From assembly GCA_965112155.1 (NCBI GenBank), contig OZ218098.1: 64,000 nucleotides of DNA; one strand, given 5' to 3'. The number at the start of each line of letters is the position of its first letter. The first letter of the stretch is position 1. The notes below the pieces were generated by a model that saw nothing but the letters and a program-made list of their open reading frames with translations, made no database searches and was not told the DNA's origin. This DNA comes from Podarcis liolepis (Eukaryota). A program made the translations under genes and the position numbers. Below, piece after piece: positions 476-40,482 of this stretch.

Positions 476-757
476 AGCCACCATCGTTCCTGAAGAAAGT
501 GGACCCCTCTTACTTGTTGACTCCTGGAGAGTCAGCACATCTTCAGTGCAAAATCAAAGGGTCTCCTGAGATCCAGGTGACATGGTACAAAAATAACAAA
601 GAAATTAGAGAGAGCGACACACAGAGGATGTCTTTTGCCAATAACGTGGCTGTGCTAGATATTACCAATGTGAAAGTTGATGACAGTGGAAGTTACTCGT
701 GCGAAGCAGCTAATGATGCTGGCAGTGACAGCTGTAGTACTGAGATTGTTGTCAAAG
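476..757 (+). CDS. TTN: Titin exon 1, Ig domain (6-mer repeat A, pos 1)
   Basis: AG/GT bounded, 282 nt, phase 1-1, [13 protein letters not shown]...STEIVVK. Confidence 0.95.
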
Positions 758-3700
758 GTTTGTTCTTAAACCCAGGGGTGCTTTCTTTTCAAGGTGCTTT
801 GTTCTGTTGCAAGTGTACTATCGGTCACTAATTCTTTATTCATGCTTTGATGATTTTATAGAGCCTCCTACTTTCATCAAAACTCTTGAGCCGGGCGACA
901 TAGTGAGAGGAATGAATGCCACTCTTCATTGTGAGGTTTCTGGTACTGGACCATTTGAAATCAGTTGGTTTAAAGACAGGAAACAAATTCGCAGTAGTAA
1001 AAAATACAGGTTGACTTCCCAAAAGTCTCTTATCTCTCTGGAGATTTCTTCATTTAATAGTGCAGATATTGGTGAATACGAATGTTCCATAGCGAATGAA
1101 GTTGGAAAATGTGTTTGCAGTGCAACATATATACTGAAAGGTTAGTGAGCAAGTGAACAAACAAAACCTATTTTTAGCATGTGCAAAAGGAGAAAATAAC
1201 TCTTTCGTGGAAACCAATTTTTCTTTTTTAGTTGTCTCCTTTCCTTCTCTTTCTGTTTCTTGTTGCATCTTGGAATCTTTTCTTATATTCTTGAACGCAG
1301 GAATAAAGGCAGAGAACAGATTTCATTGAGCTTAATTCCCAAGCAAGAGGCTGTTTTACAAATGTTTAGGTGTGGGAGAGAAAGTCAATTCAGTTCTCTT
1401 TTAAAGGTGACCTTACCTTTCAAAAGAATATGCGGACCAGAACACCGCCATCCTTTAAAATTCACACTTCTCTGAATTTTGCAATGCAGTGTTCCAGCTG
1501 GGAAATGAAAAATAGTTTTGGGAAATAGTGAATATTGGGCAAAACAGCATTAAAAATGTGTGTGGTAGAAGAAATTCACACTAAAATGCTGATAAACTTT
1601 CATGAGGACTTTTAAAAACTGCAATCTGATGTGGAAATGTGAGGACTCAATTTAAGACTTTTAAAAAAGAGGAACTGATAGGTTTCCCATCCCTACACAT
1701 GATATGTAAATAATTTATTGCTTCTGTTAGCTTGTGATACAAATGTAAAACCTACCCAAGTCAGAATTCTAATTTGCAATGCTAATGCATCTTTTCATCT
1801 CCCATCCCCCACATTATCGGTACTCAAAGTTCCACCAAGTAATGAAAGAGGAGCCCAAAGGCAATGTAAAAAAAAATGCTCTTAGCATTCCCACACACTT
1901 ACTTAAGAGTAAGCCTTGCTGAACTCAATGTGACTTACCACTGAGTAGGCACGCCTATGATTGGTCTGTTAGCCTTTCCTTTGATAAGTATAATGTCATG
2001 CAAATCAGAGGGATTCCAACATAAAGCATAGCCAAAAGGCAAAATCTCTACTCCCGACATCCTTCTGAGAAGCAAGCTTTGGTACACAGTAAAAGAATTC
2101 CTCTTTTACTCTTCCTAGTCCCCTTATTTACACCAGTAGTGGGGAACCTGTGGTCCTTCAAGTGTTGCTGAACATTGTAGTTCCCCAGTCAGCATGGCCA
2201 ATTTGTAGTTCATCAACATCTGGTGGACCAAAGGTTCTCCACTCCTGGTTTACATCAATGATGGGGAAACTGTAGCCTTCCAGATGTTGTTGGACCCCAT
2301 AATTCCTGACCATTGGCTAATGGGGTGGGAGTTGGAGTACCATATCTAGAGTGCCACAGGTTCCTCACATCTACTTCACCTGGATTAATTTCCCTGCTGT
2401 CAAATGGAAGACATTTACTTATTGCTCAACAAATAATGGTTTCTCCATCTCCAGATTGAAATGGTAAATTTTTCCCTAACATTCAGAGGTAGAAATCCAT
2501 AAAAGACGTTGCCATTGTATCCAGAAGGCAATTTATTTTCTTTAAAAAGCCTTAAATGCAGCACCAAGCACCATATGATGCAATGATAGATAAGGGTTTT
2601 TCTTCCTTTCTTTCTTTTTCAAATTAGAACCTCCCTCTTTCATTAAGAAAATCGAAGATGTTACTGCACTCGCTGGGGATGAAGTTTTCTTACAGGCAGC
2701 TGTGAGAGGCTCAGCTCCTATTTCTGTCACTTGGATGAAGGGGAAAGATATTATTAAAGAAGATAACAAAGTCAAAGTGACCTTTGAAAATGGCATTGCA
2801 ACTTTGCAAATCACAGATGTCCAGATTAGCTCTGGTGGTAAATATACATGTCTGGCTGAGAATGATGCAGGAAGCCAAACATGTTTTGGAGAATTAGCAG
2901 TCAAAGGTCAGTGTAGGAGCACTTTAAGATCACACAATTCTTCTTATACACAGGCATATTGTTCGCATTAGCTCTATAATGACCACTGTTTAATTCTGTT
3001 ATAGAGCCTGCTACCATTGTTGAGAGAGCTGAATTCATTCAGGTGACGGCAGGGGACCCAGCAACTCTGGAATACACTGTTGCAGGCACTCCAGAGCTCA
3101 AAACGAAATGGTTCAAAGATGGAAAGCCTCTGGCTTCTAACAAAAAGTACAGAATCAGTTTTAAGAACAATGTTGCTCAGTTGAAATTCTACACCGCCGA
3201 ATTGCACGATACTGGCGAAATCACCTTTGAAGTTTCAAACGATGTTGGACGCAGTTCGTGCACCACCTCATTTACTGTGTTAGGTTGGTAATCCAGTAGC
3301 GCTACTGCGATTTAGATGGTAGAACAATTAGAAGGCGGGAGGTGGGAGGGGACACTCCTAAAACACTCTTTGATATATATTGGTTTTCTTTTCTTTGCTG
3401 TGCCTTGGAACAGATCGCACCCTTCCTCCGTTCTTTACCAAACCTCTGCGGAACGTCGATAGCGCGGTTGGTGGCTCCTGCCACTTTGACTGCAAAGTAT
3501 CAGGTTCTCTTCCAATAAAAGTGTCTTGGTTTAAGCACGACAAAGAGATCACTGCCAGCGCCAAGTATGCAATACGCTACGAAGAAGGTTCAGCGTCTTT
3601 GGACATCAAACACCTGGATACCAGTGACGCAGGAGTGTATTCCTGCAGAGCTACTAACTCTGCAGGGGGCAAGGAAAGCCATGGAACTTTAACGATAAAA

Positions 3701-6700
3701 GGTTTGACATCTTCTTTTGCATTCTCTTCTCAGTATCTCTTTTAACCGTTCTTTCCCCACCCCCTTTTTAACTCCTCACTACATTAAGTTGCACTACTGA
3801 TTCTTTCCAACTCTTTCTTTCAAACAATGTGTAGAGCCACCTAGCTTCGTGACAGAGCCAGAGTCTCAAGAAATATCTCCCGGGTCAACAGTGCGTTTGA
3901 AGAGTACATTTAAGGGAACAGCGCCACTCTCTGTACAATGGTTTAAGGGTGATGCTGAGCTAACAACTGGCGGAGCTTGTTACATCATGACAGAAGCTTT
4001 GTCGAGTTACTTGGAGCTTTACGCTGTGAAACCTGCTGATTCAGGCGCCTATTCTTGCAAAGTCAGCAACGCGGCTGGTTCAGCTTCATGCAGTGCAAAC
4101 TTGTTTGTCCAAGGTTTGCACAACTCTTTCTCTTATGATGATATGCTTGGGTGGCGATTTGAGGTGCCTCTTATTTTTCCTTAACCTCTTTCTACAACTC
4201 TTCTTAATAACATTCTTTGATTCCACAGAACCTGCTACTTTCGTAGAAAGACTTGAGCCGTCGCAGTTGATTAAGAAAGGAGAATACGCCCAATTAGAAT
4301 GTAAAGTTACAGGCACGCCTGAAATTAAAATCTCTTGGTTCAAGGATGACAGGGAAATTAAAGACAGTGCCAAACACAAGATGACTTTGGTGGGCTCCAC
4401 AGCAGTCCTCAGACTCCTGGATGTCACTCTTGAAGACTGTGGTGAATATACATGTGAGGCAAAAAATAATGCTGGGAAAGATACCTGCAGTAGTGTCGTG
4501 GTTGTAAAAGGTGTGTGCAAAAGTACCGCTCCACTCAATTTTCTCAGCAAGTCTTTCAAGCCTTTTAAAGGTCCCAGAACCAATTAACAACCCTCACTCT
4601 TTCTTTCTGTCTTGTGCTATAGAGTCACCTTACTTTGTCAAGGAATTTGAACCAAGGGAAGTGTTAAAAGACTCAGATGTGATACTGGAATGTGAGGTCT
4701 TAGGTACCCCTCCATTTGAGGTCTATTGGTTAAAGGACAACAAACCTGTGAGGAGCAGTAGAAAGCACAGAATAAGCATTGAGAATTCCTTGATTAGCCT
4801 CCAGGTTTTCAAGTTTGACTCTTCAGATGCAGGAGAATACCAGTGCAGGGTAACAAACGATGTAGGAAGCTGTGTCTGTAGCTCTGAGTTGGCTCTGAAA
4901 GGTCAGTACCGCCTGGAAAATATAATAATTTAATTCTGATGTTTAGTTGAGGCTAATACTCACCAAGGCATCTATTCTTTCAATAGAACCCCCACAGTTT
5001 GTGAAGAGGATTGAGAACATTAGCTCACTTAGAGGAGGCACAATAGTATTTCAAGCAACTATTAAAGGTTCCATGCCTATAACAGTCTCTTGGCTGAAAG
5101 ATAATGATGACATTGTTGAAGACGATAACACCAAAATGACCTTTGTGAACAATGTGGCCACTCTTATGATCAGGGCCATAGAAGTGAAGCACGATGGGAA
5201 ATATTTTTGCCAGGCTAAAAATGATGCTGGAATCCAAAGATGTTCTGCTTTACTAACAGTAAAAGGTTTGTAGAGCTTCCTCCCGCCTCCTTAATTTATA
5301 GCATTGTGTTTTGCTAACGTCTACACTTCAAGTCACCCAGACTCATATTTGCTCCTGTATTTATCACAGAGGCAGCCACCATCACTGATAAAGCTGTTTC
5401 AATTGATGTCACGGAAGGCGACCCAGCCACATTGCAGTGTAGATTTTCAGGAACAAAAGATATTACTGCCAAGTGGTTCAGAGATGGAAAGGAGTTGACA
5501 TTGGGACACAAATATAAAATCAGTGTTACCGATACAGTCTCTATGCTAAAGATTGTTTCTACCGAAAAGAAAGATAGCGGCGAATACACATTTGAGGTTT
5601 CAAATGATGTCGGAAGCAGCAGCTGTAAAGCTAGCATTAATGTCTTAGGTTCGTATTGTGTATCCCTCTTCTCTTGGAGGTGGGTCGGTTGGTGGGTGCT
5701 GGCCACAACTGCAATTCTTATTTTCTTTTTATGCCAAAGGCCAGCAAAGTGGCAGCCTAATCTAATATCTATCTTTTTGGTTTGTCTTGGGTAGATCTGA
5801 TCATACCGCCTAAATTCACCAAAAAGCTAAAGAAAATGGATAGCATTAAGGGCTCTTTTGTTCACCTTGAGTGTATAGTGTCTGGTTCACACCCAATAAG
5901 TATCCAGTGGTACAAGGATGGTCAAGAGATAACTGCTAGTGAAAAGCACAAGTATTCTTTCCATGATAACATGGCATTCTTGGAGATCAACCAGCTTGAA
6001 GGTGCAGATAGTGGATCTTATACCTGCGAGGCAACAAATAAAGCTGGAAGCAACCAATGCAGTGCTCATTTAACCGTCAAAGGTTTGGACATCTTGTACT
6101 TTTTCTCCTAGGCGGCAGGCTTATTTGCCACGTTGCTTTGATTCTGGTTTTTGTTTATCGTTCCAAAATGAATGACCTCCTTCTTTTCCTGGTCTTTCTT
6201 CCCACTCTTTGTAGAACCCCCATGCTTTGTTGAAAAGCCACAGTCACAAGATGTGGTACCAGCTGCCAGAGTCCAACTCAAAGCTCTTGTGAGCGGCACA
6301 CCTCCCATACAAATAAAGTGGTTCAAAGATAGCAAAGAACTCCTTTCGGGAGCTTCTCGCTCAGTTTACAAAGATGACACTTCAAGCGTGCTGGAACTCT
6401 TTTCGGCCAAGACGTCTGATTCAGGGAACTATATCTGCCAATTGAGCAATGACGTCGGGACAACAACCTGCAAGACAACTCTTTTTGTGAAAGGTCTGCA
6501 CTTTTACATCCTGGGTTATCAGCTGCAATTTGCGCAGCTCAATCCTATGCATGTCTACTTGAGTGTAAGTCCCACTGTGTTAGATGGGGATTACAGTAAG
6601 TATGTGCATAGGATTTCAATCTACCTTAGTTTTTTAGTTGGTTTGTGTCTTTTAAAGCCAATTACTATTTTCTAAATAATTATTTTTAATTTTATTTTAG

Positions 6701-9700
6701 AGCCCCCTAGGTTTCTTCAGAAGCCTAGCCCTGTAGTAGCTTTGAGAAAAGGACAGTCTACCACTTTTGAATGCCAGGTAGCGGGTACACCGGAAATCCG
6801 TGTCCTTTGGTACCTTGATGGGAACGAAGTACTGGACCATGCTAAATATGGAGTCTCGTTTGTAGACAACATGGCGACTTTTAAAGTTTCCAATGCTAAA
6901 GTGGAGGATAGCGGGACTTACATCTGCGAGGCCCGCAATGACGCAGGTAGTGAGAGTTGCAGCATTGAACTGAGAGTGAAAGGTTAGTTGCTAAGAATTC
7001 CTTTTCCAGTTCCTTCAGCCATGCAGTTGGGTTCCTCCCCTTATTTCTGAGGTTGCTTTGTTTTCTTCTACTACTTTAGAACCTCCCACATTTGTGAGGG
7101 AGCTAAAACCTGTGGAAGTAGTAAGAACCTACGATGCTGTGTTAGAATGTGAAGTCACAGGGACTCCTCCGTTTGAAGTGACCTGGCTGAAGAACAACAA
7201 CGAGATCCGAAGTAGCAAGAAATACACCATGACTGATCAGCAATCTGTTTTTGCCCTTCATATCATGAACTGTGATGTTCAGGATGCTGGCGAATACCAG
7301 TGCATTATTTCAAATGAAGGGGGCAGCTGTTCCTGTAGCACAAAAGTCAGTCTGAAAGGTCAGTTCAGTAATCATAGTAGGGAAAAAGCCTAAGAAACAT
7401 TCCATTTGTTCTCTCACCTCCTTTAGTAAATTTTAAACCTTACCCAGGTTTCATTCCGGCTTTTTTATATTTTTAATAAACACAGAACCCCCATCCTTCA
7501 TCAAGAAGTTAGAAAACGTCCACGCTGTTTTGAAGAGCTCTGCTGTATTTCAATGCACTGTGGCTGGTTCTCAGCCTTTAACAGTGTCTTGGATAAAAGA
7601 CGAAAGAATAATTGAAAACGATGACAACTTCCACATTACATTTGAAAACAATGTGGCGAGACTGAAGATCAGGCATGTTGACCTCGGTCACAGTGGGAGA
7701 TACACCTGTCAGGCACAGAATGAGTCAGGAGTTGAGAAGTGTTTTGCTTTACTTTTAGTGCAAGGTTTGTGAGTTTTGATTCCTATTTTGATTCCTCAGT
7801 AAGCACCAGTCTTCTGCCGGTTACTCATTGGAAGACTTCAATATATTTGTGTTTTTATTCTTACTCCAGAACCTGCTCAGATCATAGAAAAAGCTAAATC
7901 AATTAAAGTTACGGAGAAAGACCCAGTCACTCTAGAATGCACTGTGGCTGGAACACCAGAACTTCAAGTAAAATGGTCCAAAGATGGCAAACAACTCATG
8001 CCCAGTAGATATTACACCATGAGCTTTGACAATAATGTGGCTAGGTTCAGGATTGAGTCCATTATGAAGGAGGACAGCGGCACATACACCTTTAAGGTTG
8101 AAAATGAGTTTGGAAGCAGCACCTGTGAGGCTACTTTGTCTGTACTAGGTTTGTATTTTGGTTGGTCAAAATGGAGCATGTTCTTTTTCAATCAACATTT
8201 TAATTGCCTGTGTATTTTTCATGAAGAAGAATGACTAAAGCAAGGAATCTGATGCTACTTACCTTCTTCCCTCCTTTCTGGGCAGATCAAGCAATCCCTC
8301 CTTCGTTTACCAAAAAATTGCCCAAAATGGATAAAATTCTGGGATCATCTATTCATATGGAGTGCAAAGTCTCTGGCTCACTCCCAATTACTGCAAAATG
8401 GTTTAAAGATGGAAAAGAGATACCCGAGAGTGCAAAATACAGGCATCTGTGCCATGAGAACACTGTATCGCTCGAGGTTAATTACCTAGAGTTGACAGAT
8501 TCTGGAAATTATACTTGCAGCGTAACAAATGTTGCAGGAAGTGACTCATGTAGCGCCGTCTTAACTGTGAAAGGTTTGAATTTCTATCTTCTTTCTATAC
8601 ACTGTATTAAAATATAAATCTTTTTCAACTTCACATCATTAATATCTTTGAATGTAGATCTCATTTAACGTTATCTATATAGAACCTTTCTTTTCTTATT
8701 AACTTTGACACATGTTTTATTTCTCTTTATTGGTTTGCTGTGGCTTGCCAGGCCATATTTCTTGCGCCGGAACCTAATTAGTTTTCTTTTGTTTCTTAAA
8801 ACCTTTAGAGCCACCAAGCTTCTTGGTAAAACCAGAAAGTCAATCAGCTATACCTGATTCAACAGTGGAATTTAAGGCATCTTTAAAGGGAACACCGCCT
8901 TTTAAAATAAAGTGGTTTAAAGAAGATTTAGAACTTGTGTCTGGACCTAACTGTTTATTTGGGATTGAAGGGTCAACTGGTTTCTTAAATCTTTATTCTG
9001 TGGATGTATCAAAAAGTGGAAACTATACTTGCCAAGTTTCCAACGATGTTGGCAGCGATTCTTGTACAACCACACTGAGCATAACAGGTGTGCTAATGTG
9101 TTCTGTGTTGCTCTTTTCTTAATTGTCTTCTGCAGTCTTTTGTGTAAATGTTTCTGGGCTACTTTTCTTCCTGCATTGCTAAAACTAGAAGTTAAGCGCC
9201 CTTTTAGATTTCTCTCCCCTCTTATTCTATATACCTTTCAACACAGTCCCTCTTTTCTTCCGATTTACCTTGCTTTCATTTTTCTTCCGTTTCCCAGAAC
9301 CTCCAAAGTTCATTAAGAAGCTAGACCCGTCTAAAGTGATTAAACAGGGCGACTCCACACGACTTGAATGTAAAATCAGTGGCTCTCCGGAAATCAAAGT
9401 GGTATGGTACAGAAATGACACTGAAGTCCATGCCAGCGAAAAATTCCAGATGTCATTCACAGATTCTGTGGCAGTCATTGAAATGAGGCATCTTGGTGCA
9501 GACGATAGTGGAGATTACATATGTGAAGCACAGAACCCTGCTGGCAGGGCAAGCTGCAGTACTAAACTCCTAGTCAAAGGTTAGCAAACATGCCTTGGCG
9601 GACTTCCTTCTCTTTGACTAACTATCCCTAAAAAGATTGAGATTAGCTCATTCTGATTCTTGTATGGCTAAGCTAACTGTTAGATTGCTATAGCTGCCCA

Positions 9701-12700
9701 TTTTGGACAGGGTCCTATTTCTCATCTAATTAACCTCCAGGTTAATTTTAAACAAGGGACGAGGGTGGCGCTGTGGGTAAAACCACAGAGCCTAGGACTT
9801 GCCGATCACATGGGCGGTGGTTCGAATCCCCGCAGCGGGGTGCACTCCCACTGCTCGGTCCCAGCACCTGCCAACCTAGCAGTTCGAAAGCACCCCCGGG
9901 TGCAAGTAGATAAATAGGGACCGCTTACTAGCGGGAAGGTAAATGGCGTTTCCGTGTGCGGCTCTGGCTCGCCAGATGCAGCTTGTCACGCTGGCCACGT
10001 GACCCGGAAGTGTCTGCGGACAGCGCTGGCCCCTGGCCTCTAGAGTGAGATGAGCGCACAACCCTAGAGTCTGGCAAAACTGGCCCGCACGGGCAGGGAT
10101 ACCTTTACCTAATTTTAAACAAGTATTCTCTAACCTGTGGCTTTCACTCTTTCCCTCAAGAATGTTCAAAGGGATGTGGTGTATTTACTATTATTTATTT
10201 AGGTTATTTAATTATTGCAATATTTGTATGCCACTATTAAACCAAAAAACCAAAGTGGTCTACAACAACCACATAGTAAAAACTACATTTTTTAAAAAAA
10301 ACAACAACAACAACCCAGAGATCATCAATTAGCTATTACAGAAAGATGTTTTCTTAATTACCTGCATAAACTTGGTGGCAATTATAACCCACTCTTCATT
10401 AACATCAATGAGTGGGGTACTTAAATCAAGGCTGCAACCATAAGTCATTCAAATTTGCACCACAACACTGAGAGGGTGACAAAACATCCCCTCCAGTCAA
10501 CTAATCAAATGCTTGAGTAGATGTCAGGGTTGGCGTCCACTGAATCTGCAAGAGGCGGCAGTGACCATCACACCTCTCTGCCTGTTACAGAAAGGATAAG
10601 TAATTAGTCAGTAGGACTACATTCCATGTGAAAGGAGGAGAAAATGGGTGTTAAATGCATTCCTGCACTCACCCTTTTGGCTCAGCATTCTAGGATGGTC
10701 ATTGCTTTTATTACTGAAATGGCCAATTACCCTATTCTGGGTGGGCAACAGTTGTGGCCTCTTGCGGGCTGGCTGCCAGCCATTCCCAAGTGCTGGGACT
10801 CGCGTGCACATTGAAGATCATCCAGCCCACTGCATTGCAGGGTGGGATTGCCCGCCAAATACACTAAACTGCCCGATCATGGGCATCTTAGTGGGTGGAG
10901 CTTTGCTGGAGGACTGGGACATGCATGCTTCCATTCCAGTCAGTTGGCTACCCTTAAAAACCAGCTGTGAAAAGAAAAGGGTGCTTCTTCTGCTGCATGC
11001 ATGCCTTGGCACTGGAACAGATACATATATGGCAATTCTCACATTATATTCATATTAAACTAGCAACATATATATTGAGGTAACTTTCTTTAAATGATGC
11101 CTGATTCTTTCTTTCATCCTAGAACCACCCATCTTTAGCAGGAAGCCGTCTCCAGTAGATACACTCAAGGGTACTGAGGTTAGCCTTGAATGTGAGATTT
11201 CTGGGACGCCACCTTTTGATATTACGTGGTATAAGGATAAGAGGCAAATCCGTAGCAGTAAAAAGTACAAAGTCGCATCCAAAAACTACCATGCAAGTGT
11301 TCACATTCTGAATATCGAAGTATCTGACATTGGTGAATACCAGTGCAAAGCTCAGAACGATGTCGGAAGCGACACTTGCGTTTGTATGGTAAAACTTAAA
11401 GGTAGGTATTATTTGAGGAAATACGGTGTGCAATCATCGTTTTCTTTATAGAAATGCACAATTCTTGTTGGAATTCTTGATGCCCATTGGCTCTTTCCTC
11501 TTCAGAACCACCAAAATTCGTGACCAAAATTAACAACCTCACTGTTGTGGTGGGTGAACCAGTAGAGTTGCAGGCCACCTTGGAAGGCTCTCAGCCGATT
11601 TCGGTGACGTGGCTCAAGGACAAAGAAGAGGTCATCAGAGAAAGTGCTAACAGGACAATAACATACGTGGAAAATGTTGCCACTTTGCAGCTTGCCAAAG
11701 CAGAACCAGCAAGCGCTGGGAAGTATATCTGTCAAATCAGTAATGATGCTGGAACCCGAGAGTGCATAGCTACTTTAACCGTTCTAGGTTGGTAATGACA
11801 CAAACTTGGCTTTTTATTTTCTTTTAAAAAGAGAGAGTTACTTTTAAAAGTTGGGAAGGCTAAATAACATTCAGAGCCTTGAGGATGAGAGAGGGCGGGG
11901 CATGCCATCAGTGTACATGGTGCATTACAGAGTATTGGAGAACGGGTTCTGAAGCAAATAGTTCAGGAAACTAGTTGGGGGTTTCATACTGGTCTGCTCC
12001 TATTGGTTGGGCAGTCAGCTCCTCTTCTCTGGGAGACAGATAAGTGGCACGGTGGTGTTTACTGTGTTTCTCAATTCTAGAAAAGAAGAGCCATTAATAG
12101 CTTTGTAGTGGCTCCTTTCCAAAGCAGAAAACTGTGGCTTTAGAGAAGTGATTTCTGTAATTGCAGTATTAAGCCATGTGGCTAAGGAGACAATGATATT
12201 CACAGGCAGATATTGCTTGAATCTTTTTCCAGAGCCAGCTGTCATCACTGAGAAGGCAGAACCAATGAAAGTCACCGTCGGAGACATTTGTACCCTAGAG
12301 TGCAAAGTGGGTGGAACACCAGAACTTTCAATAGGCTGGTTTAAGGATGGAAAAGAATTAACAACTAGCAACAAATACAAAATTACCTTCTACAACAAAG
12401 TGTCCACACTTAAAATTATTGATTCAGAAATGGAAGACAGTGGCTTATACACTTTTGAGGTGCAGAACAATGTTGGCAAAAGCAGCTGCACAGCTTCCGT
12501 TGATGTTCTGGGTCAGTTCTGTTGCTTCTCTTCATTGTATTCCCACCAGGAAATGGTTCTCCTTTGTGAGGTCCTCATTTTCTTTTGTTTACCTCCTCTT
12601 ACACAGATCGGATTATTCCACCTTCTTTCACAAGAAAACTTAAAGAAACTCATGGTGTACTGGCTTCTTCAGTGATTCTTGAGTGCAAAGTGGCTGGATC

Positions 12701-15700: not shown

Positions 15701-16862
15701 TTGAGTCTGGGTGCTAATTTCCCGCCAATCTCCCTTCTTTGTAGTGGACTGGCATTAAGGGAGGCATGAGGAAACAAAGGCTGTATTTTGCTGTGTTTGC
15801 TGTTCAGTGAATCAGTGCCATGGCTTATTTCAGCAGAAATGTCAGAATTTTTGCAGTTGTTGTTTATTTTTTATGGAGGTTTCTCATACAATTACTAATT
15901 TTTGTTGGTATCCTCCTTGATAATACCATATTATGATTTCCACTGCAAAATTTTTTTGGCGTGTTCTTAATTGTTCTTATTCCTCTCCATACTGAATGCT
16001 ACTTTCCTTCCGGCTTCTCAGAACCTCCTAAATTTGTGAAGAAACTGGAACCATCAAGAATGCTGAAACAGGGCGATTCATGTCAACTTGAATGCAAGAT
16101 CAGTGGTTCCCCAGAAATCAGAGTTGTGTGGTACAAGAATGACCATGAAATCCATGCTAGCGACAAGCACCGTATGGCATTCAGTGATGGCACAGCAGTG
16201 CTGATCATTGTTGATGCTACCCATGAGGACAGTGGAGATTACATTTGTGAAGCTCTTAATTCTGCTGGCACCGCAAGCTGCAGTGCAACGGTCACAGTGA
16301 AAGGTTAGAAGCCAATGTCTACTCTGACTTCCTCCACTCTACCCAACCCTTAGGAGCACTGGAAGGTGTTTTGTTTTTCCCCCATACGGAGTCAGACCAT
16401 TGGCCCATCTACCTCAGTGTTATCTTCACTGACTGACAGTGGCTCTCCAGGATTTCGGTCAGGACTCTCTCCCAGCCCTACCTGCAGATGCTGGGGAGTT
16501 GAACCTGAGGTCCTCTTCATTCAGAGCAGATGCTCTACCAGTGAGCTGCAGGCATTCCCCTACTTTACCCTTAAATGGTTGGATGATAATGCTATAATGC
16601 TGGGGACGCATAGTCAAAAGTACTGACAAAGGACTGAGATGTCTGAAATCCAAAGACTCCTCGACTGTAGTGAAAATGGTGGCAGGGCTGATGAGGAGGT
16701 CAGGCACACTATGCAAATAGATATAGTAAAGCAGTCTTGAAAATTTTAAGAGCGGGAGAAGCAGTCTTAGAGGATCAGTGGCCCCTCTAGCCTTTACCTA
16801 TCACTGGCCTGTGTCAGAAATTACAGAACTGTGAAGTAGCACAGGACAGAAAAAGTAAAAGC

Positions 16863-16895
<33 letters not shown>

Positions 16896-19800: not shown

Positions 19801-22800
19801 ACGCCAGACCCGCTGGAGGTTTTACCTGGAATGAGTGTAACGTTCAGGAGTCTGATTAGGGGAACTCCTCCATTCAAAGTGAACTGGTTTAAGGGGAGTA
19901 GAGAACTGGTGCCAGGGAAAACGTGCAACATCACCTTGGCAGATTCATCTGCGGAGCTGGAATTGTTCGAAGTGGGACCACTCCAGACTGGAGATTACAC
20001 CTGCCTTGCCACGAACGATGCTGGCAGTGCTTCTTGCACCACACATCTTTTTGTAAAAGGTTTGTCCAAAAGCTATTATTATGGCATGTACACCTGTTAA
20101 GTGTGTGTGCATGTCTGTGTGATACACACACACACACACACGTAGAGAGACACCCATATTGCAGTTCTTGGTTTAACCACTTCTTTCATATGACTTTATC
20201 TTAGAGCCTGCTGTGTTTGTGAAGAAGCTGAGCGATTTCAGCGTAGAACATGGGAAATCCATAATTCTAGAAAGCACGTTCAGCGGAACTCCTCCACTCG
20301 CAGTAACGTGGAAGAAGAACGGCTTAAACATCACACAGTCTCCAAAATGCAATATAACCACCACGGAAAAATCAGGCATTCTGGAAATTCTTAATAGTTC
20401 TACAGAAGATGAAGGAGAATATATCTGTGAAGTTGCAAATGACGCTGGGGAGGATGTATGTCATGCCCTGGTATCAATCATAGGTGTGTTGCTGTCTTAA
20501 TAGTTAGTTAACCATTCTTGTACTAATTGCCATCTTCTGATGTGCTTAGATTGACTGTGGGTATTGACTATGATTATTTCTGCTGCAGAACCACCTCATT
20601 TTGTTAAGCACTTGGATCACTTGGAGGTGACCATCGGAGAGCCTGCAACTTTACAGTGCCAAGTGGCTGGAACACCGGAAATTAAAGTGTCATGGTACAA
20701 AGGAGATACCAAACTAAGATCTACACAGGCTTATAAAATGCACTTCAAGAACAATGTGGCTTCACTCGCTTTCAGCCGGGTAGAGAATGCTGACATTGGC
20801 GAATACACCTGCAAAGCAGAAAACAGCGCTGGGTTTGCTACTTCAATGACAACAATCACCATCAAAGGTGATGGCTCTTTTTAAAATAATTGACCCTTGT
20901 CATATTACACACAGTGTTTGTGTGTAATATGCTGAAGTGTGTGACCCACTTGAATCACAGGCATGGGGACGGGGCTCTCAGCATGTCTACAAGCTGCTTG
21001 GCTGAGCTGTAAGGAGACTGAGATAGCTCTGAGTTCTTCCTGTGTCTCCGTGCAGCCTTCCTTCCTTTCCCCAAACCCTGCAAATTACTGAACTTGCATG
21101 AGTTTGAAAGGGATGACTGGATAAGGGTATGGGAGGCACACACAGACCTCCTACTCCCTGTGTGTGCCCATATAGGTGTGGGGGGCATGAGGGGTTAGGA
21201 ACAGAGAACATGGCTCTGTTTATTTTTATTGGAATTCTCCACATGTGCAGGGCATACTGGCCCAGGTATTCTTTTTAGTCTTCTTGCATGGCCAGTTATC
21301 ATACCCTGCAATTAATTTTTTTTGCAGATGTTAAACTTCCTCCTTCATTCACGAGAAAACTGAAAGACGTGCAGGAGACTCTTGGTTCTCCCATAGCCTT
21401 TGACTGCCGCATTGTTGGCTCTGAGCCGCTTGAAGTGTCTTGGTCGAAGGATGGGGTGCAGCTGAGAGATGACGACAACATTCAAACCACCTTCTTAAGC
21501 AATATAGCGACGCTTCAGATCTTGCAAACCTCCATGGCTCACGCTGGCCAGTACACTTGCACAGCTCACAATGCTCTTGGGACTGCTTCTTCCAGTGCCA
21601 AGCTCCTACTCACAGGTTTGTGAACAACTAAGTCTGAAGTTGTTGCATGCTGGTTCAGTTTTAAAGAACGTGAACAAGTCACAGGGCCGTAACAACAGAC
21701 TAAGAGTTTGCTGTTTGAAGGGAAGACAATACGTCCTGCCATGCCTTTTCACTTTTTGATTTTCTTTCTTTTCCTTAGAACACCTGAAACCACCATTCTT
21801 TGATGTGAAGCCTTTGCCCCTTGACGTTGCTCTTGGGGAAAGCGGTTCTTTCAAGTGTCATGTCACAGGTTCAGTGCCAATGAAAGTCAGCTGGGCAAAA
21901 GATAACCGTGAGATCCGCCCTGGTGGCAATTACAAGATTACACTGGTAGAAAACACTGCCACACTGACCATTCTTAAAGTAGGCAAAGGTGATGGTGGAC
22001 TGTATACTTGTTATGCAAGCAACAGTGCTGGGAAGGATTCTTGTGGCGCTCAGCTGAGTTTCAAAGGTAATTTGATGGAAAGTGCTGTCATTTCTTCTTC
22101 TTCTTCTTCTTCTTCTTCTTCTTCTTCTTCTTCTTCTTCTCCCCCCCCCCCCATTTTGTAAAAATAAAGACATGTTTGAATCTTCCAGCTAAAATGGGCA
22201 CAAGTGGGTGGCATTCTGTATCTAGAGTAGCAGCTGATAAAAATCTTCTTGAAGTTATTTTCTTGAGCATATTAATACCACACCGGGGTTTTCGTTTATT
22301 GCTTACAAGCCTGTTTAAAATTAGCAGCCTGTGGAAATTTATTAGGCCGTTAACAGGCTGAACATAGACTCTCCTTTTAATATGTGACACTTGAGTTGTG
22401 GTATCATGTTTTCCACTGAAGTGCGATTAAGTTGGGAAATCTGTGGTCCAGAATAAGAAAAAAGACTTGGTGTTTATTTGTGCAATAAGAAAATACAGTG
22501 TTGTATCCAGTCTTCTCTCTCCATTGATAGAAGGCTCTTGGGTCCACTGGAGGCTTCCATCAGTGGAACAGGGAGGGAGGTGACGTCAAGCAATTCTCCC
22601 TCCCCGCAGTCCACAACCTCTCATACCACCTTTCACTATGTTTCAAAGGATCCCCCAACCCTCTGGAACACTTTTGATGGGTGCCTGGGGCTGCTGATGG
22701 GAGGGGAAATTGCAAACATTTCCTTCTCATTCTTCCAATGGAATCTTCCACTCAATCAGTCCAGTGGAGGGACACCACTGGACTGCAACGCATGCAGCCA

Positions 22801-25800
22801 TTATTTAAATGGGCAAGAGTGTTATGAGCTTCCATAACTTTAACTGGACATAGACAAGCTTTAGGGAAAACTTCAGGCCAGATCTGAAATCTTATTACAT
22901 AGAGAAATCAGCCTTCAGATATTGCACGTTTAGAAGGAATCTGAGTGGCTATTGATGTAAACAGGCCTGCTGAGTTGTTTCTATCAAGGCCCTTGGCATT
23001 GTATGAATAGCAGAGATTCAATACATGGAGCTTTCCCCAGCATGATAATGCAACAATAGGGGAAGCTTTACCTGCTGAATATCCTTCTAATGCACAGTTG
23101 TCAAAGGCACAAAATCACTGCTCCCCTGCCTAATATCAGAATACTAGGCTAGATTCAGAAGCAAGCCAAGCCCCATTCCACAGAGAATGCATTTGGAAGG
23201 CACGTTCAGCCAGGTCCACTGCATTTCCCTAGCCTGGTACAGTGCAGTAGTGATGGTAGATGTCAATTCCTGGCTGTCTCCATGCATTCTAGGAGGAACG
23301 CAAGGATGGAAGAGGAGCAAAATGTTGCTGGGGTAGTGAGCAATATTGACAGCCTCCTTCTTAAAGTTGGAAGGGAGGCTCAAGCAAATAGATCACAGTG
23401 TGGGTTACTAACTCTGGATAAAGTATTTGCAACGGTATGTGCACAAGAGTTCCGCTGGATCAGATCAAAAGGTTCTCTAGTCCAGCATCGTCTTTCCCAC
23501 AGTGGCCAATCAGATGTCTCTGGGAATTCCATAAACAGGAGATGAGGGCAATAGCTCCCTCCCACTGTTTCCCTCCAGCCATTTCTATTTGGAGGCTTGC
23601 TGGAGGTAGCCTACAGCCATCATGACTTCCATCCATTGAGGGCCTAATCCTCTGTGGTTATATTTATCAGTTGTATTTCTCCTTTTTTGTCTTAGTGTAG
23701 TGTTGCATATAATGGAGATAATTTAAATTTTACAAGGAGGGGCTGATAGAATCCCCTGTGCTTCCATGTGTGCTTCTCCAGTCTTTTTTTTCATACCACC
23801 ACCATGAAATATACTTCTGAGGCAGTTGTGGTTTGAACTGTTCTTGAGTGCTCTATGGCTTGACTTGTAAGGGATCAGTTTGCTGCTGTAGATTGACCGA
23901 AAACTCTTTGCCAGTACACTTTGATAGCTAATATAGATGACACACATTCCTGAGATCTTGCAAAATTAACACAAGCAATTTTATGTATTCATTTTCTTTC
24001 CTTGTTGTTGTTTTTTAATAGAGCCACCGAGGTTTATTAAGAAGTTAGACTCCTCCAGGGTTGTGAAAGAGCACGATTCGACTAGATTTGAATGCAGAAT
24101 AGGTGGCTCTCCAGAAATTAACATTGTGTGGTACAAGGGTGAAACTCAAATTCATCCCAGTGACAAATTCAGCATGTCATTCATCGATTCTGTGGCAGTC
24201 ATTGAAATGCACGGACTGAGTGTTGAAGACAGTGGAGACTACACTTGCGAAGCCCAAAACGCAGCGGGTAGTGCGAACAGCAGTACTTCACTGAAAGTGA
24301 AAGGTCAGAACCTGCTCTTCCTTTGCTTTCTCTACCCTTCCTGTTGTAGAAGGTTGCAAGGGCTTGCCGTCTCCTACTAAGCAAGCCGATATCAGTTTCC
24401 ATTAAATGCCACTAGTAGGCCCCTTTATTTGGAATGGGAAATTTCCTTTGCACGTCTCTTCTCTCCCATTTCATTGCAATCCTTCATTCTTCATGGTGTG
24501 CTCTCTGTTCTTTCAAACGTAGCTCCTTTGCATTTAACAGAAATCCAAACCTCCTCTTTTGTAGCTCCTCCTGTTTTCCGCAAGAAACCGCGGCCAGTAG
24601 AGACTCTGAAAGGTTTCGATGTTCACCTTGAATGTGAGCTTCAGGGCACTCCTCCCTTCCATGTTTCATGGTACAAAGATAAAAGAGAAATAAGAAGCAG
24701 CAAAAAGTACAAGATCTTGTCTGAGAATTACCTTGCTAGCATTCACATTCTCAACGTTGATGCGGCAGACATTGGTGAATATCACTGTAAAGCTGTCAAT
24801 GATGTGGGAAGTGACACTTGCATCTGCTCTGTGATGCTGAAAGGTTGGTAAAAGACTTTCCATTGCCATGTTTTCCCCGGCCACTCCAGGTTTTTAAAAT
24901 CTTACTCTCTTTTCCATTACTTACATATTTTCCACCTCTTGATCAGGACCCCCAAGGTTTGTGAAGAAACTTAATGATACCACCGCTGTTGTTGGGGATC
25001 CAGCAGAACTGCAAGCTACGGTAGAAGGTTCTGAGCCGATTTCTGTTGTTTGGATGAAAGACAAAGGTGAAATCATCAGAGAAAGTGAAAATGTCTGGAT
25101 GTCATATTCCGATAAAGTTGCCATCCTTCAGGTTGTAAATGCAGAACCAAGCAACACTGGGAAATATACCTGCCAAATTAAAAACGATGCCGGAAGTCAG
25201 GAGTGTTTTGCTACTTTATCAGTTCTAGGTTGGTATAGAGTAAAAACAACAACAACAACACAAAAGCATACTGAAGAATAAATATTTTAACGTATTAACA
25301 TCTTATTTACAAATGTGACTCGTTTTGCATCTTATTCCAGAGCCAGCATCTATAGTGGAGAAACCAGGACCAATGAAAGTCACAACTGGAGATTCTTGTA
25401 CATTGGAGTGTACGGTAGCTGGGACACCAGAGCTGACTGCTCGGTGGTTCAAGAACGGACACGAGCTCTCTTCCGACCACAAATACAAAATCACTTTCTT
25501 CAACAAAGTAGCTGGGCTTAAGATTCTGAATACAGGAGTAGAGGACAGTGGAGAATATACGTTTGAGGTGAAAAACAATGTAGGCCAAAGCAGTTGCAAA
25601 GCATCAGTCCAAGTTTCAGGTTAGTTGAATGACTTGGGAATATCCCATCTGCATCTTGATATATGGACTTATCTAATTCAGTGATTTCCTATACTGCTTA
25701 ACCACTGAAATTTCCAAGTGCTGTACGATCAAACTAGACAGCGGATAAAATAAATTTAAGTGAATGATTAAAGATGGAAAGCTTCCTTAAAATGCCTACT

Positions 25801-28800
25801 GAAACAAGAAGGTCTTCAAAAAGCACCTGATGTTGAACAGAGAGCGGGCTGCTCTAATGTTGGCTACGAGAGAGTTCCACATAATTGGACCCACAATACT
25901 GGATGTGGAGACACAAGGAGAAGCCATGGACATGCCTCTAAAATGAAGAGAGTGCATATGCCTGCTTTCAAGATCCATCTCAAACTTCTTATGCCAATAA
26001 ATAGTTTAATTATTGTTAAGTCCTTGGGAATCTATTGCTTTTTAAAACTAAACTTAACATGCCATAATGTTTCTATCTTTGCTTTGTGCTCCACAGATCG
26101 CATTATACCACCTTCATTCACAAAGAAGCTGAAGGAAACACATGGGCTCTTGGGTTCATCTGCTGTACTTGAGTGCAAAGTAATTGGGTCACCTCCCATT
26201 TCTGTTTTTTGGTTCCATGACGGAGAAGAGATCACTAGTGGAGAAAAGTATCAAGCAACTCTTACAGATAACACTTGCTCTTTAAGAGTGAATGCTGTTC
26301 AAGAGTCAGATGCTGGAAATTACATTTGCACGGCAACTAATGTAGCTGGATCTGATGAATGTGATGCATATTTCATTGTCAGAGGTAAATACTGAAACTT
26401 AGGTAGATAATAAGAACAGGATATCAGGGGTTGGTTTTTTAAAAAAAAACACACACATGTTCCTTATATTCTTTATATCTTTTGTAAATGCAGCTGCTTG
26501 CCTTCCAACCATAACTATGTTTCATTAACCTCTTGTTACATATATCTAGAACCTCCATCTTTTGTGAAGAAACCAGAACCTCTGCAAGTTTTATCTGGGG
26601 CAAATATAACTTTCACAAGTATCATTAAAGGAAGCCTTCCCCTTGATGTGAAATGGTTTAGGGGTAGCGTTGAACTATCCCCAGGACATAGATGTAACAT
26701 CTCTCTGGAAGAATCAGTGGCTGAACTGGAGCTTTTTGATGTACTCCCAGCCCAAAGTGGAGACTATACTTGCATTGTTAGTAACGAAGCCGGCAAAATC
26801 TCTTGCACAACCCAACTCTTTGTAAAAGGTTTGTTCTTTGTTTTGGCTTCCTTTGTTTACACTGGAACAAAATCCCAAATCTCAGGCAATTATCTTAAAC
26901 TTTTGCTCTCATATTATTTCTGATAGAACCAGCGAAATTTGTGAAGAAACTGAATGACTTCAATGTTGAGAAGGGAAAGCAGTTAATCCTGGAATGTACA
27001 TACACTGGGACACCTCCTATTGCAGTGTCCTGGAGGAAAAATGCTATAAACATATCACAGTCAGAAAAATACAGCATCACCACTACTGAAACATCTGCCA
27101 TACTTGAGATCTCTAGTAGCAAACTGGACGATGCTGGGCTGTATTCTTGCCATATAGAAAATGACTCGGGACAAGATAATTCACAGGCTACAGTCTCAAT
27201 ACTAGGTTTGTAGATTGTTTTGAAAGTGACTGCCCTTTTTCATTAACTTTATGGTTGTTGTGACACGTGGAAGGGTCTGGCTGGTTTTGTAACTGAGTCT
27301 GTGTGCTTATTCTCTAGAACCACCTTATTTTGTCAGAAGCCTGGAACCTACTCAGGTGACAGTAGGGGATTCTGCATCATTGCAGTGCCAAATTGTGGGC
27401 ACACCAGAAATCACTGTGTCGTGGTACAAAGGAGACACCAAACTGAGAGCAACCGCTACCTCTAAAATGCACTTTAAGAACCAAGTTGCCACGCTGGTGT
27501 TCACTCAGCTGGGTAGCAACGATGGTGGAGAGTATATTTGCAAAGCAGAAAATAGTATTGGAGAAGCTTCCTGTTCAGCACTACTGACTGTTCAAGGTGA
27601 ATATGGCAATATGCTTTTGAAAGCCCCGGAGACAATGATTTATTGCTCTTTTAAAATGTGCCCGTGCGTCAGAACAGGAAATGTATTCTATGCCGTGACC
27701 CCGGACTTCCTTATTCTTGTGCCTTCATGGTGGTGTTGCAGCAGTGATCTGGCTTTCAAAACTGCTTGTGCCCACAAAGTTTTGACAGTGGACATGCTGC
27801 TTCTTTCCAATCCATGCACATCCCATGGGTCCTGCCAAAATCCTGTAACTTTTCATGCCACACGTTTCATGTAGCGTAGGGGGTTTTGTCCCACTTTTGC
27901 AGTGCTGTGGTGCAAGAGTGTCTCTCCGGGTTATCAATGAGGGGGTAACACACTGGAGAAGCATGGCATGGCAGGTAATAATATGGAATAATGCGTGGAC
28001 AGTTTAAATCCATCACTATTACACTATTATTGCCTCAATGGCATGGTGCAGAATATATCTGCAAAACATCCCCATGTTTCTACCTGTTCTTTATTCCTTA
28101 ACAGCAAATTTCCATAGATTTAATATAAACAAGTTATGATGCTTCACTATAGAACCATCTGTGTCATGGACCTGACTAGAACTTCTCTATGACGTAACTT
28201 CGTTCCTGCCCACAGGATTCAATCTTTCTGTTCTTGCTAATAGTGAATAATCAAACATCGGCTAATCTTTAAAAATGAATTCCATCTTCTATGCCATTCA
28301 GTATTTATCAGTAATGTTTGAAAAACAGACAATGACTCCCATTCAACTTTAGCAGCCAATTAAGCTAATTCTCACTGATTTCAATGGGATTTAGTCATCA
28401 CTGCCTTTAGCTAGATTGGGGACATATGTTGCTACAAATGTGCATACTATTTATGTCTATGAAAAAATCTTAAGCAGTGGAAATATAGTACAACAACTGA
28501 AACATTCAGTCAACAACACTCCAATGTATAATATTTGTTCCCTTGCAGAGCTTAAACTTCCTCCTTCATTTTCCCGGAAATTAAGAGATATTCATGAAAC
28601 TGTTGGATTACCAATTACATTTGATTGTGGCATTACTGGTTCCGAACCCATTGAAGTAACCTGGTATAAAGATGGCGCACAAATAAGAGATGGCTATAAT
28701 GTGCAAACGTCATACTTAAACAACGTTGCAACTCTGCAGATCTCACAAACTGACATGAGTCTTGCCGGACAATATACTTGCACAGCTTCCAATGCTATTG

Positions 28801-31800
28801 GAACTGCTTCTTCTAGTGCCAAACTCATCCTTACAGGTTTGTCAAGTGTCAAATGTACTTTTCTTTGATGTCATCAATGGGATGTTTCTCCACTTACGGG
28901 CCTATCCTAAATGATGAATATGCTGTGACTTGGGCCTCTTCCTGCAATTACCATGTGTTTCTTTCTTAACAACGTAACTCATCTGGATTAACATGTGCAA
29001 AGTTACACCTTATTTTTACTTCTTCCAACCTTTAGAAGGGAAGACTCCTCCGTTCTTTGACATCCCAATTGCACCTGTTGACGCCGTTGCTGGTGATGGT
29101 GCTGACTTTGAATGCCACATTTCTGGAACACGCCCAATAAAGGTTACTTGGTCAAAGGATAACCGAGAACTGCGAACTGGAGGGAACTACCAGATCAGCT
29201 ATGTGGAAAATATAGCCCATTTGACAATTCTGAAAGTTGGCAAAGGGGATTCTGGAAAATATACGTGTCATGCTAGCAACGAAGTTGGAAAGGACTCTTG
29301 CACAGCTCAACTTAATATTAAAGGTACTGGGTGCTTAATCTGTACCAGCTTCCATGATATCATATTGGCTTCTCTCTAAAGAACAGTGAGCAGATTTTCA
29401 CATGTGGGAAGGGTTTTGTTTTTGTTTACTTCTCCCCGCATCTTCCAAAAAGTCACATTTGAATTTCAGAGGATGACCTGTAATAGTGTGTTATGCAGTG
29501 CAGGAGGTAGCTGTACCTGGCATTGGAATCAACAGACTCTGGAGACCCCTCGTATGAGTGCCTTCCACTCACCTAGGAGGTCTCAGAGTTCAAGCTACAA
29601 TGACAAAGTGATGCTTTGGAAAACATCACAGCATCTGTATTTTGACAAGACATACTGGAGGAAACTGAAAATATGCATTGATGAGTGTTTGGGTGGTAGT
29701 CCATGGCATGTGAGCAGATTTCCATTTGTCCATTGGGACTTCCCCTTCCTCTCCTTCCCCATGCAGTCCCATGAACTCCCACAAATATGTTCTTGGGGGG
29801 CACTGAATCCTCTGGAGCAGATTTGTGGGAGCACTTGGTCTTCGGGGGAAACCGAGAAGAATGGGAAGTCTCATCATGCAAGTGCAAGTTTGTTCTGCTG
29901 GATGTGAGCCACTGACAGTAAATGGGGAAATCCAGGAGAATAGAAGACAGTTGTTCGGAGGGTGACAAAGATTTTTCTTCCTTTCTGACAGAACGACAGA
30001 ATCCACCTTCCTTCACCAAAAAGCTGTCAGAAACTGTAGAAGAGACAGAAGGGAACACATTTAAACTTGAGGGCCGTGTTTCTGGCTCCCAGCCTTTGAC
30101 TGTTGCCTGGTACAAGAATAACCAGGAGATTTATGAAAGCCCTAATTGCGAAATATCATTCAAGAACAACACTCTTCTCCTTGAAATTAAGAATTCAGGA
30201 CAAGCTGATGCAGGTTTATATACCTGCAAAGTGTCCAATGAGGCTGGGAGTGCACTCTGTACTTCTTCTGTGGTTATTAAAGGTCAGTTGACAGCCTCTA
30301 TGGTATTTATTTTTCTTCTTACGCTCATAAGCTTTTGGTGTTTTCTGATTGTCTAATTGCGCTATAATACTCATTAATTGCAATTAATTTTCTACATTGG
30401 GTGATAAAATCCAGTCCCACCTTATTTATTCATAGGCCTTGCAGGAGTTAAAGTGTAAGATTAGGAAAATAGTAGGCAATTCTTCTGAAGCTGTTCATTA
30501 CTTGACATTTCTCTTATTAAAAATGTTCTGCTGTTTACTAAACTCTTTAATAATGCCACTTTATGCATGCTTGAAGAGGCAAAAATAGTTTGAAAAAGAC
30601 ATCTTCCAGATGTTTTTCTGTAAATGCTAAGCCTTCTGAAAAAGTTATCTTATCTTTTCATCACTTTTTAATATAAATAATTAGTTCTCATACTTACTGT
30701 TAACAGTGCATAAAAATTTCATCCATTAAAAAAATGTTTTGGAAATAAATCCATTAAGGACTGCTTCAAAAGTTAGAAAGTGTTTAATGCTTCCCAACAC
30801 TTGAAGATATAGCTGCATTTGTGAGAGTCTGATCAGATAAGCAATATATTGAGTGCCTGCTTTTTCTTACATGGAACTGCTATCCATGTAAAGACTCTTT
30901 GAAATGTTTTTTCCCCTTAACAATATCACATTAAAGGTATCAAAGGTGAAGGATTGCAACCAATTGTGTAATATATTGTTCCAACCTTTCTGGCTTGTAC
31001 ATCTTTGGTAGCTTGGTGTGAAATCATCAAATTTTGGGCTGTTAACATAAAAGGTGATAATGCATATTTTGCAGCTAATTCAATGCTTTCATATTCCTTT
31101 CTCTTTGCAAAATAACAGCTTTATGTGCTACCTTAACGTATGCATACTTCACACCTCCATTCTTTTTGTACTACTTCTACCATATAAATACTGTACTGGG
31201 AAAATGGAATGGATTCATCAGCATCCGCTGCATAATCTTATTCAAACCCAGATCTGTATCTTGTTATGGAAGAGAAATTATTACTTAACATCTTTTCTTC
31301 CCTTGCTTCATTATTTTGTCCCTTCGAATGGCATTACAGAGCCCAAAAAACCACCAGTATTTGATCAACCTCTTAAACCGGCAACAATAGAAGAAGGTAA
31401 AATCTTGCAGCTCAGTTGCCATGTCAAGGGATCGCAGCCCATCAGAATCCAGTGGCTAAAAGCTGGGAAAGAGCTAAGATCATCTGATAAATGCAGCTTG
31501 AGCTTTGCTAATGGATCCGCTGTTTTGGAAGTCCAGGCAGTTACTAAGACTGATTCTGGCGAGTATATATGCAAAGCTTCGAATGCAGCTGGAACTGACT
31601 CTTGCAAGTCAAAAGTGACAATTAAAGGTACAGTGAAACTGAATGCTTTGGTGATGAAACAGTAACTCAAAATTCCGGTATCAGTCTATTCAGTATCTCC
31701 CTGTTACAGTAAATAAGAGCAGCTTCACCTATAAATTAGCAGGTCAAAACTGCTTATTTTTCCCGGGCAGGTGACTGCATATCACACTACGACTTGCATA

Positions 31801-40100: not shown

Positions 40101-40482
40101 GTGGATTTTCATGAGGAATTTTTTAAATAAATAAATAAATAAAATGTTGCATAAAGATAGGGAACTGAATCTAAGATTGGGAAAAACAAGAAGCTGAGAG
40201 AAACAGTCATTGACAGATTCATCTATCCCTAGATTTCACCCAGGAATTCCAAACTTTTCCACTGAGCAGAAAGCTTTCATTTAATTCATCTATCCATTCA
40301 TAAACTCTAATAAATCCATCTGCCTTAGGACAGCCATGCTGCTGTTGCTTTGAGAATGACATGGCATTGAAACTACACGACGAAAAACTTCATTTGTACA
40401 ATTTCAAAGCACAATAATGCATGTATGGAATGATTATTCTGAAAACTGCAAATACCCATGTCAACCTTATTAGGCTTTGTAC

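Follow-up and report, generated by a model that had tools for sequence, protein, structure and literature searches.

What maintains an unusual class of 5' splice sites (donors) across the middle spring exons of titin, and does that class bear on how these exons are silenced? The question is raised by a 64,000-nucleotide stretch of the Podarcis liolepis genome (contig OZ218098.1; G000:C1:113832001-113896000), hereafter the window, which codes for I-band titin on the + strand. Its tandem immunoglobulin (Ig) exons mostly end in donors of the form AG/GTYNG (the slash marks the exon-intron boundary; Y, pyrimidine; R, purine; N, any base). The explanation that we favor, at a probability of roughly 55%, is that duplication of an ancestral exon passed these donors on and that selection keeps them below full strength, where they would stay repressible by RBM20.

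An N2A query from the locus was 82 to 89% identical to named titins of turtles and birds and approximately 60 to 79% identical to fish titins. Between window positions 476 and 31627 lie 50 in-frame single-Ig exons (E1 to E50), each phase 1/phase 1 and 279 to 291 nt long and grouped in super-repeats of 6 and 10 domains. The N2B exon, the single-Ig exon 50, and the two-Ig exon 51 stand 5' of the array, and N2A and then PEVK follow it, which identifies the array as the middle tandem-Ig exons 52 to 101. We numbered E_k as exon k+51 because the summed lizard exon lengths reproduce the human distance from c.15496 (PMC6105519) to c.22528 in exon 78 (PMC5874998). The 10-mers (E19-28, E29-38, and E39-48) were defined by protein identity (58 to 70%).

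All 50 Ig exons had GT at the donor predicted from the domain end, as expected of U2-type GT-AG introns, and the E1 junction was confirmed by a spliced frog protein (P0333) that joins the end of E1 to the next exon there. Intron position +3 was T in 28, C in 10, G in 6, and A in 6 donors; every one of the 38 pyrimidine donors carried G at +5. This recount matched the first-pass annotation of the window. G was invariant at -1 (50/50), and A at -2 (49/50) and T at +6 (37/50) were common. The -2 base falls at the third position of the final complete codon (Lys AAA, 27; Gln CAA, 6; Leu CTA/TTA, 8; others) and is therefore chosen among synonyms. In 49 of the 50 exons that codon ended in A, whether it coded for Lys, Gln, Leu, Thr, Ser, Ile, or Arg; these terminal-A codons are a splice constraint on synonymous sites. 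The claim that the donor follows super-repeat position also held for the 10-mers, in which position 3 is GTTGGT, position 8 GTGA, and position 10 GTA in all three copies, a concordance exceeding that of 20,000 shuffles (p=0.0005 at +3; p=0.0001 at +4). In the 6-mers, concordance at +3 alone was no better than in shuffles (p=0.46) because nearly all of their donors are Y. The interchange of T and C at +3 and the variable +4 are more consistent with an exclusion of purines than with a bound motif. An in-frame stop at +3 to +5 was rejected as the selected feature, as TAG occurs in only some donors and TTG, TGG, and CAG are common.

For comparison within the same genome, the rest of titin was annotated de novo in 400 kb of flanking DNA by junction alignment, and OBSCN and HMCN1 were annotated as well. 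In the constitutive titin set (distal Ig, A-band, and M-line), 42 of the 132 junctions were corrected by hand, 2 were added, and 2 GC donors were set aside. The first-pass annotation had proposed a comparison with constitutive exons, and there a pyrimidine at +3 was rare: 6 of 132 GT donors versus 38 of 50 in the Ig array (Fisher p=2e-22, a significance that is overstated, like those of the other controls, because paralogues are counted as independent). Elsewhere, it occurred in 2/24 donors of the partial Z-disc/proximal titin set, 2/7 N2A donors, 1/29 HMCN1 donors, 7/48 OBSCN Ig exons, and 0/63 PEVK donors across the whole gene. The feature is therefore general neither to Ig exons nor to titin. 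Among donors matched for context (-2A/-1G/+5G), 37 of 41 Ig donors were Y versus 16 of 68 controls; part of the Ig excess is thus context.

The contrast with PEVK largely stood. Nearly all donors there were GTA, none had +3Y, and few had +5G; the number in the window came to 35 rather than the 40 first reported, comprising 31 exons found by filter (30 GTA and 1 GTG; 5 with +5G) and 4 more, all GTA, from a looser pass. All 63 PEVK donors of the gene had -2A/-1G, and +5G was present in 8 of 60 AG/GTA donors versus 29 of 61 in controls.

Several observations accompany these controls. In OBSCN, 6 of the 7 Y donors fell in one young Ig array (G000:C13:6849433-6864300; L044-L046) whose repeats are 70 to 97% identical in DNA to one copy; in 6 of its 10 repeats the donor is AAG/GTTYG and lies three codons farther 3' than usual, and the remaining 4 have the usual GTR donor. 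This array shows duplication seeding a donor class. The alternatively used N2B exon (end at G000:C1:113828883, L014) has GAG/GTTGGA, and an exon read as novex-2 (end at G000:C1:113807937, L012) has CAG/GTTGGC, both with +3T and +5G; neither exon is a copy of the Ig repeat, and independent gains are possible. Two distal-Ig titin exons have apparent GC donors, both AAG/GCAAGTTC (last exon bases L018:1891 and L018:5610).

Conservation of the donor class was assessed through the phase-1 introns: a genomic read-through open reading frame (ORF) gives Gly for G/GT, and its next codon covers +3 to +5, so that +3 can be classed from the residue after Gly. The best 120 of 139 matches and the best 120 of 164 from two profile searches yielded 238 proteins, of which 14 were dropped (spliced or annotated proteins, own-genome matches, and poor ends) and 224 were kept, representing 22 exons; E11 was added from cluster members, bringing coverage to 23 of the 50 exons. 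As the first-pass annotation would predict, orthologous ORFs of 17 lizard-Y exons gave 112 Y, 39 R, and 13 ambiguous calls, with a Y majority in 16 of the 17, and those of 5 lizard-R exons gave 58 R and 2 Y, with an R majority in 4 of the 5. In the 50 to 70% identity band, the lizard-Y exons gave 23 Y, 3 R, and 6 ambiguous calls. Every one of the 114 Y calls was Leu, Trp, stop, or Gln, as codons TTG/CTG, TGG, TAG, and CAG would give; +4 therefore varies, whereas +3Y and, apparently, +5G are kept.

Individual exons illustrate the pattern. E1 was Y in 25 of 27 orthologous ORFs, including clusters anchored by a named mouse protein (Gly-Trp), a named frog protein (Gly-Leu in its cluster), and a named shorebird protein (93% identical to the bird-like cluster). 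E21 orthologues were Y in 11 and R in 5 cases, those of E41 were all Trp = TGG (3/3), and 9 E19 ORFs were ambiguous. The position 10 donors of the 10-mers had a purine at +3 in 19/20 and 12/12 orthologous ORFs, and L083 and L085, two fish-like orthologues of E50, also had +3A. The lizard E36 donor matches a human TTN donor letter for letter from -7 to +7 in a table of PMC4856993 (exon placed by id order), whose 20 TTN rows, drawn from a list preselected for noncanonical registers, include no GTY donor. Among the 28 loci of a metagenome scan, the only middle-Ig titin exons were two orthologues of E50, each with +3A, and a GTDB scan returned no matches. By parsimony on per-exon trees with the same leaves, R/Y class changes numbered 18 at +3 versus 63 at +9/+12/+15, and for Y exons only, 16 versus 41 (summed by hand), approximately 2.6-fold fewer. 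The rate of change at +3 was thus below the local neutral rate across species, as measured indirectly in 23 of the 50 exons, and the class appears conserved in orthologous exons.

Divergence among the paralogues in the lizard points the same way. Fourfold-site identity was 38% (10-mers) and 33% (6-mers), against a random value of 27%, so that paralogous synonymous sites are nearly saturated. That the introns have diverged beyond recognition was confirmed: the 49 Ig introns gave only two blastn matches, of 20 to 21 nt, and were otherwise unalignable. Ig orthologues in tortoise and quail were 74 to 85% identical, closer than the lizard paralogues; the 10-mer triplication therefore predates that split, and recent gene conversion is excluded. 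Transversion distances predict 7.4 Y-to-R switches among 24 (10-mers) and 8.2 among 18 (6-mers) under neutrality; 3 and 2 were observed (p=0.036 for the 10-mers and p=0.002 for the 6-mers, rising to 0.095 and 0.022 in a model that allows reversion). The switches went to G and A about equally by eye, with no preference for G. Because the class was kept despite near-saturated divergence and appears conserved in other vertebrates, it looks selected.

What would be selected is suggested by donor strength. Predicted U1 duplex energies (ViennaRNA, with U1 pseudouridines ignored) were -6.9 kcal/mol for the Ig-Y donors and -7.2 kcal/mol for distal titin (p=0.77), so that by predicted U1 pairing the Ig donors are not weak; consensus matches out of 7 averaged 4.9 (Ig) and 4.6 (constitutive). 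With A substituted at +3, the predicted Ig-Y energy becomes -9.6 kcal/mol, and 11 of the 38 reach 7/7 matches, versus 0 of 132 distal donors. PEVK donors reach a similar match count another way, through AG/GTA with +4 to +6 lost. GTRAG was found in 0/50 Ig, 1/63 PEVK (the last PEVK exon found), and 78/132 (59%) constitutive donors; within the -2A/-1G context, it was found in 1/112 array donors versus 22/88 (p=4e-8), although a single change would create it in 16 Ig donors. By contrast, exons 50 and 51, whose donors launch block skips in rat, carry GTAAG. The invariant +5G, which the first-pass annotation treated as a signal of its own, needs no special explanation, because +3-mutant donors generally require -1G and +5G and tolerate the loss of either poorly (PMC9522415).

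The proposed division of the two springs by LUC7-type selectivity survived for PEVK only. The left-handed class (Balance <= -2, LUC7L3-promoted), to which approximately 20% of human exons belong (PMC11842720), contained 52 of the 63 PEVK donors and 10 of the 50 Ig donors, the latter mostly purine donors or donors without +6T. Just 1 of the 50 Ig donors was right-handed (Balance >= +2, LUC7L2-promoted), and 39 scored -1 or 0. Mean Balance was -0.76 (Ig), -2.05 (PEVK), and +0.64 (constitutive), on a score that ignores +3, the defining Ig base.

RBM20 contacts UCUU motifs on the 3' side of a regulated titin exon and has been modelled as blocking U1 recognition (PMC6007684). In the 50 nt after donors, TCTT averaged 1.24 per Ig donor (0.57 when shuffled), 0.92 for PEVK (0.40), and 0.48 for distal titin (0.40), so that the Ig and PEVK arrays, and not distal titin, show the enrichment expected of RBM20-repressed exons; the Ig value was 1.08 without E38, where a TCT microsatellite directly after the donor (window 22067-22130) holds nine overlapping UCUU. 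An apparent excess of UCUU after purine donors came from this one microsatellite and was discarded. In rat, RBM20 prevents splicing of introns 50-70 (52-68 of them cooperatively) and 80-88 and spares 70-79 and 88-116; exons 52-68 are repressed cooperatively with intron retention, skips start at exons 50 and 51 and border exon 79, and after repression they join border exons (PMC3575840). How RBM20 silences approximately 18 consecutive introns all-or-none was left unresolved by Li 2013 (PMC3575840).

We therefore set out the favored explanation in mechanistic terms. Duplication would have built the Ig and PEVK arrays from two ancestral donor seeds. In the Ig array, +3 is the main mismatch, and a purine there would create a near-perfect donor that RBM20 could no longer hold unspliced. 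Once +3 was Y, the known epistasis would fix -2A, -1G, and +5G, and stabilizing selection on strength would disfavor a return from Y to R. The resulting ceiling would let UCUU-bound RBM20 keep the short (approximately 100- to 130-nt) introns unspliced over the whole block, and the Ig and PEVK classes would have met the same ceiling by different historical routes rather than being two codes. Genome-wide, changes from nonconsensus to consensus donor bases are on average faster than neutral, and some nonconsensus bases are conserved (PMC4079205).

A number of results weigh against this explanation. The first-pass annotation had noted the RBM20 control of this segment, yet when lizard donors were placed on the rat map, 22 of 26 in repressed and 16 of 24 in unrepressed stretches were GTY (p=0.19), so that donor class did not predict repression, and the fully repressed PEVK has no GTY donor. 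No difference in downstream UCUU separated Y from R donors (p=0.2 to 0.9). The always active donor of rat exon 70 and the long-range donor of exon 84 are both GTY in the lizard. Exons 54-78 are constitutive in human skeletal muscle (PMC5874998), and a strength ceiling would therefore matter mainly in heart. Purine switches are tolerated in whole clades. Val (GTG) appears in 16/39 ORFs of E10 and 13/15 of E12, in a probable bird clade by identity band; rodents of a Neotoma-anchored clade have +3A at E21; and the E20 donor, read as Lys in 16/20 ORFs, may be a complete GTAAG in birds and mammals. Finally, the orthologue records are related cluster representatives whose counts are not independent and whose +3 is known via the translated residue only, and the neutral switch test presumes that each of the six positions of the 6-mer was ancestrally Y; position 6 may have been G.

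Some of the same evidence would suit inheritance with ordinary slow turnover, in which one GTY donor was copied 50 times, +3 is nearly free in an AG/GT..GT setting, and titin is special in its history only and not in its rate. We consider this rather unlikely, if conceivable. The young OBSCN array demonstrates the seeding that it needs, 24% of the context-matched control donors are already Y, purine switches persist in whole clades, the reversible model for the 10-mers gave a p value of only 0.095, and above-neutral conservation of nonconsensus donor bases is general (PMC4079205). It fits poorly with synonymous sites near saturation, with the reduced change at +3 in Y exons where +4 moves among T, A, G, and C, with the absence of GTRAG from all 50 Ig donors, and with GTTGG at N2B and novex-2, which are no repeat copies.

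The first-pass annotation had instead suggested a selected cis code. The retention of the donor class against near-saturated divergence was borne out; a separate code for trans-acting factors, with GUYNG read by a particular U1/U6-associated factor, PEVK by another, and the position hexamers setting exon thresholds, was unsupported, and we regard it as quite improbable. The three regional Balance classes, the hexamers concordant by repeat position (including the nonconsensus +4G of GTTGGT), human PEVK rows that are also xAG/GTA with nonconsensus ends (PMC4856993), the action of LUC7 paralogues by donor handedness (PMC11842720), and that of QKI at TTN donors of poor U6 complementarity (PMC12424749) would all accord with it. 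However, the Ig donors are balanced rather than right-handed, T and C interchange at +3 with +4 variable, the RBM20 repression map is not matched, and the QKI motif is not in excess in the 70 nt that follow Ig donors (0.06 vs 0.04). Long-range competition, in which GTY donors serve their own short intron only and skips start at purine donors (exons 50, 51, and 79) in super-repeat register, seems very unlikely. The exons at which rat skips start (50 and 51) or that they border (79; PMC3575840) are indeed GTAAGT, GTAAGG, and GTATTT in the lizard, and Y donors tend to precede shorter introns than R donors do (medians of 131 and 210 nt; p=0.09). Yet rat exon 84, GTY in the lizard, is a skipping and shuffling donor (PMC3575840), human 85-88 and exon 78 to 80 skips exist (PMC5874998) from donors that are GTY in the lizard, and Y donors precede introns of >1 kb at E2, E19, E29, and E49.

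Features of the titin I-band locus in the window (positions relative to the window)
Feature	Position	Strand	Remark
Three 6-exon Ig super-repeats, E1-E18 (exons 52-69)	476..9087	+	16/18 donors GTYNG; E7, E18 = GTGTG
10-exon super-repeat 1, E19-E28 (exons 70-79)	9298..14929	+	7/10 donors GTYNG
10-exon super-repeat 2, E29-E38 (exons 80-89)	16022..22066	+	7/10 donors GTYNG
10-exon super-repeat 3, E39-E48 (exons 90-99)	24022..29323	+	7/10 donors GTYNG
E49 donor GTCAGT, E50 donor GTACAG	29992..31633	+	
E1 donor AAG/GTTTGT	758..763	+	
10-mer position 3 donor TAG/GTTGGT (E21)	11788..11793	+	Same hexamer at 18848-18853 (E31), 25229-25234 (E41)
10-mer position 8 donor AAG/GTGATG (E36)	20868..20873	+	GTGA also at 14092 (E26), 27597 (E46)
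10-mer position 10 donor AAG/GTATTT (E28, exon 79)	14930..14935	+	GTA also at 22067 (E38), 29324 (E48)
N2A-region exons	32217..36090	+	7 donors read: 2 GTY (after 35184, 36084), 2 GTAAGT
PEVK exons in window, 35 found	37641..63999	+	xAG/GTA or GTG, nonconsensus +4 to +6 (left-handed); contrasting donor class

Beyond the donors, recurring ORF text marked copies of one repeat in the PEVK-region introns (41116-41412, 46768-47058, 49510-49887, and 61750-62426), which we take to be SINE-like (short interspersed nuclear element). Two very long PEVK-like exons (approximately 1650 and 1395 nt; G000:C1:113902693-113904342 and 113912771-113914165; L015 and L016) lie amid neighbors of 54 to 339 nt. Upstream are two 200-N stretches (L001 and L009; window-relative positions -135634 and -55854), the second covering part of a titin Ig exon.

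Titin isoform length sets the passive stiffness of heart muscle, and one conserved base per exon offers a clean mutational handle on all-or-none RBM20 silencing. Donor-strengthening variants in TTN exons 52-101 are predicted to be possibly nonneutral, and the lineages in which the donor switched to a purine (rodents at exon 72; a probable bird clade at two 6-mer exons) constitute natural experiments. A broader reading, which we hold to be unlikely, is that three donor dialects (GUYNG in Ig, left-handed AG/GUA in PEVK, and GURAG in constitutive exons) have existed since at least the tetrapod ancestor, with +3Y as the cis switch for all-or-none RBM20 repression and with core factors able to tune the springs independently. 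If it were true, single +3 Y-to-A variants, scored by predictors as harmless strengthening, would change cardiac stiffness.

Parts of this system resemble known ones. The work on RBM20 block repression of titin exons 50-219 (PMC3575840 and PMC6007684) concerns the same exons, in which UCUU is likewise enriched downstream of donors; it places the cis signal in intronic UCUU, and donor classes are undescribed in the portions available to us. The LUC7 classes of Kenny 2025 (PMC11842720) are mirrored by left-handed PEVK donors and by constitutive titin leaning right-handed, whereas the titin Ig donors are balanced, and "Titin" has 0 occurrences in the main text of that paper. GUUUG sites can use U-pseudouridine pairs, according to the +4U-pseudouridine pairing of Tan 2016 (PMC4856993). 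The -1/+3/+5 epistasis of Zhou 2022 (PMC9522415), by which +3-mutant donors need -1G and +5G, explains the uniform +5G of the Ig-Y donors and accounts for neither the persistence of Y at +3 nor its regional clustering. A literature search that covered few subscription papers found no description of a titin +3-pyrimidine donor class or of GTRAG exclusion from the skippable block. Conserved nonconsensus donors at regulated exons are thus already known, and the 38-exon, tetrapod-wide titin +3Y array with GTRAG exclusion is apparently undescribed. The closest parallel is provided by the conserved subconsensus donors of Denisov 2014 (PMC4079205, citing Garg and Green 2007), in which a nonconsensus base is likewise kept above neutral expectation at regulated exons; the titin donors differ from them in involving a single position across 38 tandem exons of the same gene and in having an average, not weak, predicted strength.

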